This document shows positions 2,162 through 11,296 of a stretch of DNA of 12,010 nucleotides, piece after piece. The first letter of the stretch is position 1; each line of letters opens with the position of its first letter. Below the pieces are notes generated by a model. It worked only from the letters and a program-made list of their open reading frames with translations. It ran no database searches and was not told the DNA's origin. The position numbers were made by a program, and so were the translations under genes. The DNA lies in assembly GCA_964589725.1 (NCBI GenBank), contig CAZPUJ010000230.1, forward strand, positions 1 through 12,010, given 5' to 3'. This stretch comes from an uncultured Planctomycetaceae bacterium. Lineage in GTDB: Bacteria > Planctomycetota > Planctomycetia > Planctomycetales > Planctomycetaceae.

Positions 2162-4366
2162 TCACGCTTGTGAGAGGGATGGCTCCTGTTTGACTTTGGG
2201 TTCCGGTTTGGCTGATGCTGAATCTGGTTCGGCTGTTGGGCTGACAGTCGTTGACGTTGTCACGCCTAGGCCGACTTTGTCAGCGATCAACAGGTCGATC
2301 AACGTTGCGAACAAACCCATATCCTTCGAGTGACCATTCGCCTGGCCGTTGCCATTGCCATTCGCGCCGGACATGAAGAGGCGTTCGGGCACCAGAGGTT
2401 GTTTGCTTTGCGACAGGTGTTGAGCCACCAGCGAGAGCGCGTACAACCGCGGGTCGCCGTATGAGCCGATCTTCTGCGCGAGCACTCGGGCCTGAGCCTC
2501 GCCTTCCATCGAGACGCGTTGCCCTTCGCCTTCACCCATCAGCTTGAGCGCCAGGCTTTCGGCTTCGGCCTTCAGCCGAATCGCTTGGCTGGCGGCTTCG
2601 GCTTCGAGCACTTTGCGTTTGCGGTCGGCTTCGGCCTCGACAACGGATTGCTCCGCCTTCTTGCGGCCTTTCGCCAAATCCGCGTCGCCCTGGTTAGCGG
2701 CGATTTGGATTTGCACTTGCGAGTTCGTCAGTTCGGCCTGCTTGTCGGCCACGGCTTGAGCCATCTTCAGCTCCTTGAGTTTGTCGGCGGCGGTTTTTTG
2801 CTGTTCGTAGGTCAACACCTGCTCGCGAGCCAACTGCCGCTGACGCAATTGATCCAACAGTTTTTCGATGTCGCTGCCGGCCACGCTGTCGGGCTTGCCG
2901 ATCAGCACGTCCACCAGCTCGATGTCGAAGTCCTTAAACTTCCCTCGCAGTTCGCCACGAGCTTCCGCTTGGATGACGTCACGCTCGTGCAGCAACGCCA
3001 GCATGGTTTTCTTGTGAGCGATGTCCCGGAAGTACGCGCTCAGCAGCGGGTCTAGCGTTTGCGTGATGAGTTTCTTCACGTCGCCGAATCGCTGCACAAC
3101 GCTCGCGGCCTTCTGGTAGTCAATGTGGACGACGATCGACAGCGGCAGCACCGGTTCGTAAGCGTCGGCCGTGACCAGGTCGATCGACTTCAGACTTTCG
3201 TCGAATTTATGCGACTCGCTGCGGCCAGTGATCCAGTGCAGCACGAAGTTCGTCGTCGGGACCAGGTGAACGTTGCCGGCATACCGGTTGAACGCATACT
3301 TGCCCGGCCCCAGCGTGTTGGCTTGCACGCCACGCTCGCCTTCGACCACTCGTTCGCCGTGACGGAACGCCACGCCCGAAACGTCGTGTCCTTCCTTTCC
3401 GTAATAACTGACGACGACCCCCACGTGCCCGATCGGCACCACGGTCTTCGGCATCAGCTCGACGGTCGCAAACCAACGGTTGATGAAATACGTGCCGTCC
3501 GTCAGCGGAACGTACTGCCGGCCGCGTCGGCCGCCGGCTCGCAGAAACGCTTCGATGTCCTGATAGTTGTTGTGATAGTTCGGATCGCTGGCCTCCGTCG
3601 CGACCGCCGGAGCGATAATGTGCCCCGCTGCCAATGCCGGTCCGTCATGCGCGGTCACAATGCCAATCTTGTCGCCGGAATGAACTTCGTTGGTTCCATC
3701 TTCCGACGATTCCACGTTGCCCCCGCCGATCACGATTGGATCGAAACCGTTGACAGCGGCAAGTTCCTCGCGCCACGCGCTGAGCGTTGATTTCTCGCCT
3801 GCGTTGCCGAGGTTGTGGTGATAGACCACCTGCTCGGTGACCACGACGAACAGCACTGGGTTGATCACGTACACGCCTTCGCGGAGGATCGCTCGCTGAC
3901 GGCCTCGCTGGCCGTAAACCGGCTTCTCACCGAAGCCGCCGCACAGAAACGCTCGTGCGTCTTGGAAGTGGTTGCAGTCCACCACGCGACCGAGCGTTTG
4001 TTCCGGAGGCAATGGCTGGCCATCGCGAGCAAACAGGTAGCCGATTTTGCCTTGCGGCACGACCGTCAACGGAGCCTTGTGAATTCGGAACTGCCACGGC
4101 CAGTAACCGAAGTGCAGTCCACCGCGCAGCAACTCCGCCTGAAAACCAGCCTCGCCGTTGAGCGCCATCAAGCGGCCCTCACCCAGCGACCCGGTTTGCG
4201 ACCACAGTTTCTCCACGACGCCGACACGGTTGTTCGGGATGAATTTCACCCCCAACAACGCCGGCAGCAGGAGCAATGCGACGACAAACAACATCGCAAT
4301 GAGTCGCACCGCTCCGTCTGGCAAATCCACTGCCAAAAAATTCATGCTCATCAGAAACGTACTCAT
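2162..4366 (-). CDS. Flotillin-family (SPFH/band-7, FloT/YqiK-like) membrane protein, about 734 aa.
   Basis: There is an N-terminal transmembrane segment (LIAMLFVVALLLLPALLGV). It is followed by an SPFH-like region and then a long Glu/Ala/Lys-rich coiled coil with EA repeats (VEAEADRKRKVLEAEAASQAIRLKAEAESLALK), typical of flotillins. The likely start is the ATG at 4366 (MSTFLMSMNF), with an AAGGGA site upstream. The ORF-track extension to 4525 lacks a ribosome-binding site. Confidence 0.8.
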   Translation of the reverse strand: MSTFLMSMNFLAVDLPDGAVRLIAMLFVVALLLLPALLGVKFIPNNRVGVVEKLWSQTGSLGEGRLMALNGEAGFQAELLRGGLHFGYWPWQFRIHKAPLTVVPQGKIGYLFARDGQPLPPEQTLGRVVDCNHFQDARAFLCGGFGEKPVYGQRGRQRAILREGVYVINPVLFVVVTEQVVYHHNLGNAGEKSTLSAWREELAAVNGFDPIVIGGGNVESSEDGTNEVHSGDKIGIVTAHDGPALAAGHIIAPAVATEASDPNYHNNYQDIEAFLRAGGRRGRQYVPLTDGTYFINRWFATVELMPKTVVPIGHVGVVVSYYGKEGHDVSGVAFRHGERVVEGERGVQANTLGPGKYAFNRYAGNVHLVPTTNFVLHWITGRSESHKFDESLKSIDLVTADAYEPVLPLSIVVHIDYQKAASVVQRFGDVKKLITQTLDPLLSAYFRDIAHKKTMLALLHERDVIQAEARGELRGKFKDFDIELVDVLIGKPDSVAGSDIEKLLDQLRQRQLAREQVLTYEQQKTAADKLKELKMAQAVADKQAELTNSQVQIQIAANQGDADLAKGRKKAEQSVVEAEADRKRKVLEAEAASQAIRLKAEAESLALKLMGEGEGQRVSMEGEAQARVLAQKIGSYGDPRLYALSLVAQHLSQSKQPLVPERLFMSGANGNGNGQANGHSKDMGLFATLIDLLIADKVGLGVTTSTTVSPTAEPDSASAKPEPKVKQEPSLSQA

Positions 4367-4579
4367 GGTGTCCCTTTCGTGTGCGCAGTCATGTGCGCTC
4401 GTAGCGACCGCATTCATGCGGTCCAGCCAGGGACGCCGACTTGGGTGTCGCATCGACCCGATGAATCGGGTCACTACGAGCGCCGCGTCCCCGGCTCGTG
4501 GACACTGAGGCAACTTCGGGGCCAATCACCTCAATCGCGACAACCGCCCATCCACAGCCGAGTTCAGCCAAACAGCAAC

Positions 4580-4627: not shown

Positions 4628-6004
4628 ATGCCTGACTCTCTTCTGATCTTGCAACCTTTCGGGACCGATCTGAGCGACCTGCGCAAGGCAATCGTCTCCA
4701 AAGCTGATGCGAACGCTGTCGTGCAATTGGTTACGTCGCCGAAGGAATTGCTCACAACGGTGACGGACACGACGCGAGATCATGTCGCGTTAATTCCGCT
4801 CGCTGCGGGACGAGGCAAGAACGGCGGCCTGGCCTTGATCTCGCAAATTCGCGAAAGCAATCCAGATGTCGTCGTAGTGATTGTCGCGGACAAAGGAGAT
4901 GTTGATGTGGCCGCGCAAGCCATTCAGGCTGGAGCGAACGACTTCTTGGTGCTCGGACCAAAACTGCGTGAGCGAGTCGCAACGCTGCTGGGCAAGCTGC
5001 AGGCGCTGCTCGATGCGGTGCGACGCAAGCGGCAGTTGGATGAGTACAGTTCGCAGCTTGCCAAGTCACTGCAACAGCAGTGGCCACTGATTGGAGCTTC
5101 GGCGGCGATGCGCAAGTTGCTGACGCGGATTCAGCGAGTCGCCAAGATCCCCCGGCCGGTGTTGATCATCGGCGAGCGAGGGACCGGCAAGGAATTGGTG
5201 GCGCGTGCGATTCACTTTTCGGGCGGGCCAGCGTCGAGGCCGCTGGTCACGATCAATTGCGCGGCGTTCAACGACGCGCTGTTGGAAAGCGAACTCTTCG
5301 GCCACGAGCGGGGCGCATTCACGGGTGCGGACACCGCTCGGCGAGGCAAGTTCGAGCTCGCCGACGCCGGCACGCTATTCCTCGACGAGATTGCTCACAT
5401 GTCGCTGCCGTTCCAGCAAAAGATTCTGCGCGTCGTCGAATACGGCGCGTTCCAGCGAGTTGGCGGCAGCGAAGAACTGCGCACGACCGCTCGCATCGTC
5501 GCCGCCACGAACTGCAATCTGCGCGACCGTATTGAACGAGGCGAGTTCCTGGCGGACTTGTACGACCGCATTTCGTTCGAGGTGCTCGACATCCCGCCGT
5601 TGCGGCAGCGCGGCGACGACGTTGAGCTGCTGGCCCAGCATTTCCTAGCCACGTTCGTGCGCGAGACGCATTCGCTCACGCCCAAAACATTTTCGACTGC
5701 CGCACTCGCCGCGCTCAAACAATACTCGTTTCCCGGCAACATCCGCGAACTGAAGACGATCGTCGAACGCGCGGCCTATCGCGACTCGGCAACCGAGATC
5801 ACACCCAGCGACCTCGGCCTAATCGCCGAGGACAACTGCCGCGCTCGCGCCGGCACCTTCGAGGAAAAGCGGGATGCCTTCAGCCGGCAACTCGTCCGCG
5901 AAGCGATCACCCAAGCCGACGGCAACCAAGCCCAAGCCGCGCGACTGCTGGGCCTCTCTTACCACCAGTTCCGCTACGACCTCAAGAAGTACTCCACTCG
6001 CTAA
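4628..6004 (+). CDS. Sigma-54-dependent transcriptional activator (bacterial enhancer-binding protein) with an N-terminal degenerate receiver-like domain and a C-terminal Fis-type helix-turn-helix.
   Basis: Motifs seen: Walker A 'GERGTGKE', the sigma-54 contact motif '[15 protein letters not shown]', Walker B 'GTLFLDEI', and 'ARIVAATN'. The C-terminus reads '[22 protein letters not shown]' (Fis-type HTH). The first 120 aa or so align to a CheY-like fold, but the acidic pocket is lost (QPF for DD; IPL where the phospho-Asp would be). Confidence 0.9.
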
Positions 6005-6009
6005 CACTA

Positions 6010-6111
6010 CAGCGCACCTTCTGACTCGTTGTAGCTGAATTCGCAAGAATTCAGTCAGTCGACCAGGCTCGTGTGGCTGAATCCTTGCGAATTCAGCTAC
6101 AAGGTGCGCTG
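6010..6111. terminator. Large composite palindrome filling the convergent intergenic gap. Putative bidirectional terminator or repeat element.
   Basis: 6084-6111 cttgcgaattcagctacaaggtgcgctg is the reverse complement of 6010-6020 + 6029-6047 (cagcgcacctt / ttgtagctgaattcgcaag), giving about 28 bp of pairing with an 8-nt bulge. A nested hairpin, ctgaattc-GCAA-gaattcag, sits at 6034-6053. The structure spans the whole gap between stops at 6004 and 6112. No U-tract on either side. Confidence 0.45.
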
Positions 6112-7464: not shown

Positions 7465-7543
7465 AGTGCAAAGTGCAGAGTGAAAAATACTGAGTGCAAA
7501 GTGAAGGACATTCATCAGCGTCCATTACTCTGCACTTTGCACT
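7465..7543. promoter_or_regulatory. 17-bp perfect inverted repeat AGTGCAAAGTGCAGAGT (7465-7481 / 7527-7543), with a third direct copy of the core AGTGCAAAGTG at 7493-7503. It lies in the ndh leader and the tail of the upstream gene.
   Basis: Read directly; the reverse complement of 7465-7481 equals 7527-7543. It sits between the ndh start (7428) and the stop of the upstream minus-strand gene (7589). Confidence 0.55.
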
Positions 7544-8777: not shown

Positions 8778-9278
8778 TCAAGGGCGGTGATGAGTTTTGG
8801 GAGGTCGCGGTAGCCTTTGATGCGGCGAATTTCTTTTCGACTTTGAGCAGGCCGGCCGCGATGTGTCCAAGCCTCGAGCCCGCAGTTCAGTCAGCAATTC
8901 GGTACAGACCGGCGCGTTCTCGGTCCCTCCCTGACGCAGCCCCAAGATATGTTTGTGGCCGTGTTCGTCGAGTCCCACGGCAAGGATTAGCATCTCGCCC
9001 GCGAAGTCGCTGCCGTCCAGGAACAACGCCACGAAGCGGATCGTGTTCAGGGGGCCAGTCATCAGTTTCTCCAGCTCGTCGGCCGAGGCCCTCACGAAGC
9101 CGCGACTGACGCTGGACTTCTTCACGCCGACTCCCGCGCGCGCCAGATCGAGCACTCCCTCGTAGTCTCGGCACGACACGCCGCGAACCATCTTGGCCAG
9201 TCGCAAAATTGGTATCAATTCCGTCTTCAACAACGGCGTCGGCCGTCGACGTAGAATGAGATGCCAGCAGCATGTCAA
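8778..9278 (-). pseudogene. Internal fragment of an IS256/Mutator-family transposase, covering roughly aa 95-245 of a protein of about 400 aa. A possible further out-of-frame remnant runs down to about 8690.
   Basis: 'GVSCRDYEGVLDLARAGVGVKKSSVSRGF...LEKLMTGPLNTIRFVALFLDGSDFAGEMLILAVGLDEHGHKHILGLRQGGTENAPVCTELLTELRARGLD' follows the Mutator consensus (G.StRdi...vS.s.vSr...PL...v.lDa......A.Gi...G.k.iLG...g..E....W...L..L..RGl). Upstream of the start the frame is closed by TAA (9293-9291), so the N-terminal 90 aa or so are missing. After RGLD at about 8868 the family signature is lost (the DGLKGF / second-Asp region is absent), indicating a deletion or frameshift. Confidence 0.65.
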
Positions 9279-9434
9279 CTTCCGTGTTTGTTATGATGTC
9301 CGACCGGAAAATGGTGTCACTGATCGACTCGGTGAGAACCTGTTCACGAATAACACCGTGTTTTCGCTGGTAGTGATCGACTTCCCAGGCTCATTCAAAA
9401 GGCGGCGAGTTTACAGTGTCCCTTTGCGTTCTTC

Positions 9435-9499
9435 GCGGCCTTCTGTTTAAAAAATGGGTCTTGAGACATGGGGTGCATTTCGTTTGAACAGAAGGCCGC
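9435..9499. repeat. 13-bp perfect inverted repeat gcggccttctgtt / aacagaaggccgc with a 39-nt spacer.
   Basis: Read directly; arms at 9435-9447 and 9487-9499. Confidence 0.6.
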
Positions 9500-9549
9500 A
9501 GAGATCGCAAAGGAAAACGGACCTCTTGGGGCGGCGGAGCCGCAACCAA

Positions 9550-9649
9550 ACTAACCCGAAGCGTCAGCGAGGGCGGGCGCTCCGAGTGACGGAGATTTTT
9601 CAATCCAAACTTTGTGAAACGCCCGCCCTCGCTGACGCTTCGGGTTAGT
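9550..9649. repeat. Perfect 30-bp inverted repeat (actaacccgaagcgtcagcgagggcgggcg / cgcccgccctcgctgacgcttcgggttagt) separated by 40 bp that contain their own 5-bp hairpin (ctccg-agtga-cggag). A MITE-like or cruciform element.
   Basis: The reverse complement of 9550-9579 is identical to 9620-9649. The two arms translate to the same 'PPSLTLRVS' peptide in the spurious ORFs 9391..9603 (-) and 9614.. (+), confirming exact symmetry. Confidence 0.85.
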
Positions 9650-9823
9650 GTGTCGGCTCAAAATCTTTGCGTAGCGCGAAGATCTCAAACGTTTGCAGTA
9701 CAGCGTGGTCCGAAGAACTCCACGAATTCATTGTTGGACAGGTTCTTAGCCTCGTCACCTGCGTTGGCTTCAACGCAGCGAGAAAGAGGGGCTGGTCGAA
9801 TACCGTGTACGAGGAGCAAGACG

Positions 9824-11296
9824 ATGAGTCATGCGGATGATCGAATGGCGGCAAGGAGCATTCGGCGGCGGGTGTGGATCCTGACGGTGTGGTTACTGGC
9901 CGTGTCGTTGCCTCTGGTTGCCGGTTGCGTCGAGCAACCGTCGAACGTGCCGGTGGCGAGCGCCGATTCATCGCAGACGTCGTCCTCGCAGGCTGACGAG
10001 CCGGATCGAGCAGCCAACGCCGTGATCGCGGATGAGCGGCCACGACAGGACGGCAGCGCGAACGTCATTCAGCTTACTTCACTGAAAGTTCCCGGCAAAG
10101 ACATGGACTGGCCTCGCTTCCGAGGCCCAAACGGCATGGGAACCAGCGACGCGAAGGGGTTGCCGATGACCTGGAGCGCGACAGAGAACATGGCTTGGAA
10201 GACCGAGTTGCCGGGGCCGGGCGCTTCGAGTCCGATTGTGTTTGGCGATCAGATCTATCTGACGTGCTACACCGGTTATTTCATCCCGAACCAGCCTGGT
10301 GGCAGTCTCGAGCAGCTCAAGCGGCACCTGATCGCCGTGCGGCGCCGCGACGGCGGAATTGTGTGGAACCAAGCGATCGCCGCGAGGTTGCCCGAGGAAA
10401 GTCAGATTCGTGATCACGGCTTTGCCGCGAACACGCCTGCCGCGGATGCCGAGCGCATTTATGTGTTCTTCGGCAAGTCGGGAGTCTTCGCGTTCGACCA
10501 CAGCGGCAAGCAACTCTGGCAGGCCGACGTCGGTTCGCAGACTCACGGCTGGGGCACGTCGGCTTCGCCCGTGCTCGACAAGGATCTGGTCTTCATCAAC
10601 GCCAGCGTCGAAAGCCAGTCACTGATCGCGCTCGATCGGCGTACGGGTGCCGAGAAATGGCGAGCGAAGGGCATCCACGAGGCATGGAATACTCCTGTCG
10701 TGGTCACCGCCAGTTCGGGGAGGCGGGAATTGATCGTGGCCACTCAGGGCAAGGTGCTGGCGTTTGATCCCCAGACGGGGGATGCGCTGTGGTCCTGCAA
10801 GACTGACATTGGCTGGTACATGGTTCCCAGTGTCGTCGCGGCTGACGGCATCGTTTATTGCCTGGGAGGTCGCTCCGGGACCGCCGCGCTGGCCGTGCGA
10901 GCCGGTGGCGATGGAGACGTGACCGAGACCCATCGGCTGTGGACGAGCGTCAAAGGTTCGAATGTTTCATCGCCAGTCTATCTCGATAAGCATCTCTATT
11001 GGATGCACGAGCAACTCGGCATCGCCTACTGCGCCACGGTCGACAGCGGGAACGTCGTCTACGAACAGCGTCTCGAACGAGCCGGACAGGTCTACTCGTC
11101 CGCGCTGCTGGCCGACGGGCGACTGTATTACCTCACGCGGGATGGCCAAACTTTCGTGCTCGCGGCGAAACCCGGTTTCGAGCAGCTTGCCGTGAACGAC
11201 CTTGGCGACGGGAGCCTCTTCAACGGCAGCCCGGCCATCGACGGCTCCCGCCTGCTCCTCCGATCAGACAAGTTCCTGTACTGCGTGGGCAAGTAG
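9824..11296 (+). CDS. PQQ-like beta-propeller repeat lipoprotein (BamB/PQQ-enzyme-repeat fold), about 490 aa.
   Basis: ATG at 9824 with a GAGGAG site 7 nt upstream. The signal peptide ends in the lipobox 'LVAGC'. Repeated W-containing beta-propeller blades are present (e.g. 'ALDRRTGAEKWRAKG', 'AFDPQTGDALWSCKT', 'GIVYCLGG'). The ORF-track start at 9614 runs through the 30-bp inverted-repeat arm and is rejected. Confidence 0.8.
   Translation: MSHADDRMAARSIRRRVWILTVWLLAVSLPLVAGCVEQPSNVPVASADSSQTSSSQADEPDRAANAVIADERPRQDGSANVIQLTSLKVPGKDMDWPRFRGPNGMGTSDAKGLPMTWSATENMAWKTELPGPGASSPIVFGDQIYLTCYTGYFIPNQPGGSLEQLKRHLIAVRRRDGGIVWNQAIAARLPEESQIRDHGFAANTPAADAERIYVFFGKSGVFAFDHSGKQLWQADVGSQTHGWGTSASPVLDKDLVFINASVESQSLIALDRRTGAEKWRAKGIHEAWNTPVVVTASSGRRELIVATQGKVLAFDPQTGDALWSCKTDIGWYMVPSVVAADGIVYCLGGRSGTAALAVRAGGDGDVTETHRLWTSVKGSNVSSPVYLDKHLYWMHEQLGIAYCATVDSGNVVYEQRLERAGQVYSSALLADGRLYYLTRDGQTFVLAAKPGFEQLAVNDLGDGSLFNGSPAIDGSRLLLRSDKFLYCVGK

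Follow-up and report, generated by a model that had tools for sequence, protein, structure and literature searches.

Genes and hairpins of the window

The window, by which we mean the whole 12,010-nt stretch of DNA analysed here, is an entire MAG contig with Planctomycetota gene content, including a DUF1501 protein, a PQQ_2 propeller, a sigma-54 activator and an SPFH protein. It contains one doublet of a repeat that we designate W-type. To the left of this element, and outside it, lies a minus-strand relic of the IS256 family (Transposase_mut; 8778–9350), whose ORF (8778–9278) spans profile positions 111–224 of 379; both IS ends are lost, as is the N-terminal part. To the right is a plus-strand PQQ_2 beta-propeller gene (9824–11296) that starts 172 nt 3′ of the element.

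A repeat search placed the arms of the element at 9547–9579 and 9620–9652. They are 33 nt long, 97% complementary and separated by a 40-nt spacer (9580–9619), which on folding forms the loop of a long hairpin. Within the arms, 9550–9579 and 9620–9649 are complementary at 30 of 30 positions, bearing out the perfect arms and spacer length given in the first-pass annotation. Unit typing identified each arm as one W-type REP-like unit, the left on the plus strand and the right inverted, on the minus strand. The left arm comprises a CTAA foot (9551–9554), a 21-nt core, AACCCGAAGCGTCAGCGAGGG (9553–9573), and an inner stem extension, CGGGCG; the core of the right arm lies at 9626–9646 (minus strand). 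These are the two occurrences of the core in the window, compared with none in 200 dinucleotide-preserving shuffles. The arm sequence is ACTAACCCGAAGCGTCAGCGAGGGCG, in which the unit reads CCC-GAA-GC-GTCA-GC-GA-GGG. Folded as single-stranded DNA, positions 9540–9660 have a free energy of −52.7 kcal/mol (z = −12.8 against shuffles). The small hairpin and T5 run previously noticed in the spacer are both present, as a 5-bp hairpin (9580–9594) followed by ATTTTT. This sole T5 run sits inside the loop, and the sequence 3′ of 9652 is GTGTCGGCTC.

A second, independent hairpin at 9416–9518 was found by repeat search and folding. It had been read as a 13-bp inverted repeat beside the element; an inverted repeat does exist there, but it is considerably larger, with 36-nt arms (9416–9451 and 9483–9518) that match at 83% around a 31-nt loop (−29.1 kcal/mol, z = −6.0). 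No relatives of this hairpin were detected among 261 fetched loci or in IMG/VR. Both hairpins are enclosed by an outer inverted repeat (26 nt, 73%; left arm 9335–9360, right arm 9721–9746), each arm of which is conserved in the closest relative, locus L122 (9786–9803 and 9906–9923, respectively).

Other palindromes occur elsewhere in the window. A classical GTAG-tagged REP doublet at 4395–4483 pairs GTAGCGACCGCATTCATGCGGTC with GACCCGATGAATCGGGTCACTAC (29-nt arms, 31-nt spacer), and one of its arms is 100% identical over 29 nt to a sequence in L028. Since this doublet is located in the 5′ part of a long ORF (2162–4525), the true start of that ORF is probably downstream of it. Further long intergenic hairpins lie at 6029–6102, 7465–7543, 1936–2045 and 1132–1175. 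One has 34-nt arms and a 6-nt loop and is situated between the convergent sigma-54 activator and NDH2 genes; the others comprise a 17-nt perfect inverted repeat at the NDH2 start, a hairpin with 26-nt arms and a triple tandem of GACATAAAAGGTGTCA. None of the four had relatives in the first 132 fetched loci.

The W-type repeat family of Planctomycetia

The arm proved to be multi-copy across many genomes, answering the question of copy number raised by the first-pass annotation. Among the matches listed, more than 119 genome stretches contain the exact core, nearly all of them from Planctomycetia. The isolates among them are Alienimonas chondri, Alienimonas sp., Novipirellula sp. SH528 and Neorhodopirellula pilleata, and the MAGs are labelled Gemmataceae/Gemmatales, Isosphaeraceae/Isosphaerales, Pirellulaceae/Pirellulales and Planctomycetaceae. 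As loci were fetched by the exact 21-mer, conservation of the core is partly built in, while partner arms and extra copies are less biased. The element of the window thus belongs to a dispersed repeat family of many Planctomycetia. It had no match among PLSDB plasmids and matched two contigs only in IMG/VR. A full-text literature search for the W-type sequence or its peptides found no published description.

Two observations concern the taxonomic labels of the loci. One W-type doublet (L017, 7733–7812) is in a complete Abditibacteriaceae chromosome, outside the Planctomycetota. Five repeat-bearing MAGs with a G+C content of about 60% (L045, L053, L098, L099 and L102) are labelled ‘Candidatus Kuenenia stuttgartiensis’. 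The G+C content of Kuenenia is roughly 41%, and the label is probably wrong.

Outside the 21-mer just 4–5 bases are conserved, which gives a unit of about 25 nt: a foot, [C/G]TAA, followed by CCC-GAA-GC-GTNA-GC-GA-GGG. The basic unit is therefore this 25-mer and not the 30-bp arm. Feet across the family include AGTAA, ACTAA, ACCAA, TGTAA and CGTAA, that of the window being CTAA. The units are strongly biased to head-to-head arrangement, with 115 ‘+-’ pairs versus four ‘-+’ pairs, and 230 of 291 units (79%) fall in ‘+-’ doublets; tandem direct arrays and lone units were also seen. Doublet loops fall into several size classes between 5 and 130 nt, and loops are common to copies within one genome, indicating that whole doublets replicate as units. 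In the genomes sampled, there is one additional W-type site per 24 kb or so, a figure biased to copy-rich genomes, and one locus (L119) has at least five sites within 8 kb. From a sample that leans to copy-rich genomes, we estimate hundreds of W-type copies per genome in many Planctomycetia. In several Pirellulaceae genomes (L085, L104, L015, L100, L107, L114 and L095) W-type doublets are repeatedly bordered by the motif TTTGAAGTTGCGC and its complement GCGCAACTTCAAA, which gives rise to nested composite palindromes that resemble BIME mosaics.

Across the 198 non-anchor units, variation is greatest at the N of the GTNA loop (46%, with all four bases represented); the last A of GAA and the terminal G come next. 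In 45 of 115 doublets the arms mismatch at this loop base. Constraint acts on the 25-nt unit, not on the long stem. The outer four bases show apparent covariation, which may be due to subfamilies particular to single genomes and not to selection for pairing. A lone W-type unit folds weakly (−3.5 kcal/mol, z about 0), which counts against its recognition as a hairpin.

The copy in the window is in a class of related long-form copies, which have inner stems of the form CGRRCGCTYC...GRAGCGYYCG, often with GAATTC at the centre. Its 30-bp perfect stem is the third longest of 112 copies, in which the median longest perfect stem is 15 bp. The copy is thus atypically intact, and its 30/30 perfection suggests that it is young or was recently homogenised. 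The earlier judgement that the palindrome is too exact for a structured RNA holds for this copy but not for the family, where stems are far shorter and arms often differ at the loop base. The associated proposal of a DNA-level origin was supported, the ~100-bp unit being a dispersed, mobile-looking repeat and not a locus-specific RNA stem.

A perfect palindrome in a short-read MAG contig could also be a unique local product of template switching or fold-back replication, as had been suggested, or an artefact of assembly. The 30/30 perfection is compatible with such an origin. Yet the same arms are found in hundreds of unrelated loci, including those of isolates, and this copy number excludes a template-switch duplication or artefact; we consider such an origin extremely unlikely. 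An assembly artefact is in itself unlikely: the element lies in the interior of the contig, the sequence on either side of it is unique, and other members of its family occur in isolate genomes. The flanking gene is moreover collinear with that of L122.

We also examined the position of copies relative to genes, using a crude ORF caller. The median distance of copies is 50 nt from the 3′ end of a gene and 123 nt from a 5′ end. Their context was convergent in 23 cases, tandem in 42 and divergent in 11 (background counts 94, 224 and 85, respectively), with divergent regions under-represented. Together with the very stable stem, these figures would suit a functional RNA hairpin maintained by selection on transcripts, such as a terminator, an mRNA-stabilising 3′ stem-loop, an RNase III site or a 5′-UTR regulator. 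We regard this as an unlikely origin for the element. No gene precedes the copy in the window, which has the defunct IS relic on one side and the 5′ end of the PQQ gene on the other, and its T-run falls in the loop instead of following the stem. An Rfam scan gave no match; sub-threshold matches were to animal and plant miRNA models only, on the neighbouring hairpin. An RNA stem does not need a 21-nt sequence conserved across orders, nor does it sit easily with arms that may mismatch at the loop base, with in-frame copies inside coding genes or with a sister repeat family tied to a HuH gene (both described below), and the gene-context statistic itself comes from the crude ORF caller. A role in termination or at the RNA level may be a secondary use.

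Turnover of palindromes at orthologous sites

The closest relative, L122, has a PQQ gene that is 92% identical and aligns to window positions 9211–9350 and from 9731 onward. Between the aligned blocks the window has a specific 380-nt segment (9351–9730) and L122 has 106 nt, which contain a different perfect 28-nt palindrome inside the same outer inverted repeat. Comparison of the orthologous site, another check proposed by the first-pass annotation, thus revealed an indel in which each relative holds its own palindrome. The L122 palindrome (9815–9886, ATCAGCCGGAACGCGCTAGCGTCCGGTT) is itself a member of another dispersed family, also seen in L020 (1–27) and L015 (3996–4023).

W-type copies were also found in frame within genes. 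In a uvrA gene (L049, 2477–5854), four tandem units with a 33-nt period and one inverted unit (4873–5038) are inserted between the second Walker A motif and QSPLGRTATSNPATY, and are read as TRSVSEG four times, then PSLTLRVS. A W-type doublet in L042 (5025–5092) lies in frame within cas1, where it splits the Pfam match in two, and a long-form doublet in L110 (4286–4374) is in frame in the PSCyt2 domain of a DUF1549/DUF1553 protein. L021, L038 and L080 have comparable copies inside ORFs.

The DUF1549 protein allowed a broader comparison. Among its orthologues (L110 compared with P0121–P0145, and L132 at about 2110–2290), a single site between QLAGDL and ILGTGFLRQTLSNREG carries in-frame inserts from at least five palindrome families, or no insert. 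For one pair of proteins with 91% identity, the DNA flanks align to the same boundaries and the inserts are wholly different. This looks like a landing pad or the replacement of one palindrome by another. Copies are therefore gained, lost or replaced at orthologous sites and can sit in frame in genes.

These observations bear on whether the element is a classical MITE, that is, a deletion derivative of an IS with a DDE transposase, perhaps of the IS256 relic itself, with the 30-bp arms as terminal inverted repeats. Inverted arms around a short non-coding core, proximity to a transposase relic and presence/absence polymorphism all fit this description. However, we found no target-site duplications of 3 nt or more above expectation in 112 copies, at any boundary offset from 0 to 9, and the flanking duplications sought under the first-pass annotation are accordingly lacking at this length. 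Nor would such an element be expected to have loops of just 5 nt, or to occur as lone units or as single arms in tandem direct arrays; no transposase family recurs near the 119 copies and no IS was found with ACTAACCCGAAGCG... ends. The truncated edge of the relic, within the aligned block 9211–9350, is common to L122, which is without the element, so truncation of the relic predates the variable segment and no tie between relic and element can be demonstrated. The MITE interpretation is largely refuted, and we consider it very unlikely. What stands of the original suggestion of a miniature mobile element is that the repeat is dispersed and mobile-looking; what falls is its assignment to a transposase-type MITE. 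The alternative suggestion of a recombination or resolution site found no support.

The P-type sister unit, class 3 HuH-Y1 genes and known systems

Quentin et al. (2018, BMC Genomics 19:475, PMC6006769) described class 3 HuH-Y1 (TnpA_Y1) proteins, chiefly from Planctomycetes, Acidobacteria and Legionella, and the class 3 gene of Planctopirus limnophila (ADG69454.1) is flanked by the repeat ACGAGCCGGAAGCGTCAGCGACGGGC (PMC6006769, Table S1). The exact P. limnophila 27-mer had no matches in metagenomes, and a scan with a relaxed P. limnophila-type pattern led to contig L192. This carries a 174-aa gene (79–603) with the motifs NHVH, WT and YVLDEQ, with four repeat units upstream and three downstream. 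These units, which we term P-type, read CGAG-CCG-GAA-GC-GTNA-GC-GA-CGG. They share the core GAAGCGTNAGCGA with the W-type unit and differ in the foot, CGAG, and in one swapped compensatory stem pair. P-type feet include ACGAG, CCGAG and CAGAG, with the stem CCG..CGG; in typing, W-type units showed the foot [AC][GC]TA-A and the stem CCC..GGG. W-type stems covary with the Planctopirus, Legionella and Solibacter versions. The doublet grammar of the two types is identical, and they are exclusive by locus: one set has 208 W-type and no P-type units, and the other 224 P-type units and about one that is W-like.

The stop codon of the L192 gene lies inside the GTAA loop of a repeat unit, the C-terminus ..SEPEA and the TAA being encoded by CCGAGCCGGAAGCGTAA. 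Most class 3 homologues likewise end within a repeat unit whose GTAA loop supplies the stop. The L192 protein has 1981 homologues, under the JGI name ‘REP element-mobilizing transposase RayT’, and a profile search of the class 3 family returned 3530 clusters at 50% identity. P-type ‘+-’ doublets are present on both sides of all seven independent class 3 genes with readable DNA, an independent confirmation of the link published for P. limnophila. EPEA, the translation of the P-type unit across the stop, falls within the last 45 residues in 89 of the 120 top homologues, and two homologues with non-EPEA C-termini also have P-type flanks.

Every one of the close class 3 homologues listed with readable DNA is flanked by P-type units, none by W-type, and searches of the 119 W-type loci by regular expression and tblastn found no class 3 gene flanked by W-type units, which counts against mobilisation of the family by a RayT-type enzyme. 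Clustering all ORFs of these loci against each other, in search of a mobilising gene linked in cis, returned just ordinary planctomycete paralogues. The sole direct pointer to a W-type enzyme is homologue P0417, which is 45% identical to a P-type enzyme: translated, the W core gives NPKRQRG, and this peptide stands in the called N-terminal extension of P0417, 18 residues ahead of the conserved core of the protein, which we take as a hint. In ‘plasmid’ records of Legionella adelaidensis searched with the published class 3 repeats, no gene was seen at the five sites inspected.

Two other HuH genes came to light among these loci. L105 encodes a divergent class-3-like HuH-Y1 protein (1693–2241; 25–30% identical; motifs TTYGTWLPG, HVH, PWTKG and YRYVRDHRDQG) with another palindrome, CCCCAAGCCGACGGCATGCCGTCGGCTTGG, on both sides, possibly a further enzyme/repeat pair. 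L085 has a class 2 RAYT-like gene (3227–3802; DHIH ... YIARNP) with GTAG REP doublets, GTAGCCGGATTCGCCAAGAATTCGGA, at its flanks; a W-type doublet lies 1.3 kb away. These genomes thus run more than one HuH/hairpin system in parallel, and in L085 several are found together in a single genome.

The exclusivity of the two types is also relevant to a further possibility, that the repeat is the binding site of a conserved host protein (nucleoid-associated, regulatory or similar to an uptake signal) and is kept by selection rather than mobility. An exact 21-mer common to several orders would be expected of such a site; variability peaks at a central base, as it does in many protein sites, and copies occur in genome-maintenance genes such as uvrA. 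Against this, half-site spacing varies from 5 to 130 nt, density is just about one per 24 kb, copies turn over between close relatives and the two mutually exclusive sequence types track an enzyme family. We judge a host-protein site to be quite unlikely.

Taking these data together, we propose that the element is probably a REPIN-like non-autonomous doublet, mobilised in trans by a cognate class 3 HuH-Y1 endonuclease; mobilisation in trans is inferred from the P-type sister family. A cognate class 3 HuH-Y1 enzyme, with its gene at another genomic location, would recognise the W-type unit as a small single-stranded DNA hairpin together with the foot on its 5′ side. By cutting and rejoining units, such an enzyme could allow doublets to spread or be exchanged without target-site duplication. 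At the window locus the element is probably without a dedicated function, and any effects as a cruciform or as a 5′-UTR hairpin of the PQQ propeller gene would be secondary. This kind of element is already known, while the W-type family was previously undescribed.

A more ambitious possibility, which we put forward as doubtful, is that W-type and P-type are specificity variants of an ancient Planctomycetia-wide system, in which palindrome families swap at fixed ‘landing pads’. A vertically kept class 3 HuH-Y1 enzyme would then hold the hairpin repeat nearly invariant over very long times. The landing-pad component derives from the L122 and DUF1549 sites, which hold different palindromes in close relatives. 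If true, it would imply a mechanism of hairpin-for-hairpin exchange that has not been described for REPINs. Repeated palindrome replacement at single sites, including those in uvrA, cas1 and DUF1549, offers a testable lead on target choice.

The findings have implications for annotation and for the study of HuH enzymes. All through planctomycete genomes, the hairpins yield spurious small ORFs and peptide inserts (TNPKRQRG, VTRSVSEG and PSLTLRVS) and should be masked as repeats. Class 3 ‘REPtrons’ have so far been the subject of a short note on about two dozen proteins. A large enzyme family, at least two exclusive repeat types and a 21-mer present across orders together make a clean system for the co-evolution of HuH enzymes and hairpins, in which the repeat specificity types differ by the foot and one compensatory base pair.

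Of the systems described to date, the W-type unit has much in common with the class 3 HuH-Y1 repeats (Quentin 2018). The two have an identical 13-nt core, GAAGCGTCAGCGA, and the same architecture: a stem of 3–4 bp, a GA(A)/GA internal loop, a 2-bp stem and a GTNA loop. Both occur as head-to-head doublets and tandem arrays, and both appear to be in high copy. They differ in the pair beside the internal loop, which is C-G in the W-type unit and not G-C, and in the foot, [C/G]TAA in contrast to the published CnGA (CGAG), a difference that counts against mobilisation by RayT. Flanking of HuH genes was seen for P-type and not for W-type units.

A dispersed near-palindrome of about 100 bp, intergenic and conserved across genera, also recalls MITEs of the Correia and ERIC type. 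Those elements are of fixed length and have terminal inverted repeats with TA or other target-site duplications, whereas the W-type family has no such duplication, loops of variable length and single or tandem units. An intrinsic terminator would have a T/U run directly 3′ of the stem and a gene upstream, both of which are lacking at this element. The in-frame copies in uvrA, cas1 and DUF1549, read as VTRSVSEG...PSLTLRVT, resemble Rickettsia palindromic elements (RPE) and intragenic REPs, although the sequence and phylum differ from those of RPE and the copy in the window is intergenic.

There is a further structural parallel with REPINs and BIMEs, which Bertels and Rainey reportedly described in 2011 as REP doublets with a RAYT in Pseudomonas fluorescens SBW25 and E. 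coli. Here too, two inverted units of about 25 nt and a short spacer form a hairpin of about 100 nt, and the copies are extragenic, biased to gene 3′ ends, free of target-site duplications and divided into within-genome subfamilies that share loops. REPs have been noted within replication and repair genes (overview in PMC3733652). The W-type unit differs from the REPs of class 2 RAYTs in having no GT[AG]G tag (neither GTAG nor GTGG), and from REPINs in that its own hairpin is weak and its presumed enzyme is of class 3, not class 2. Finally, unlike classical REPs, which are usually species- or genus-specific, the W core is identical across several orders.
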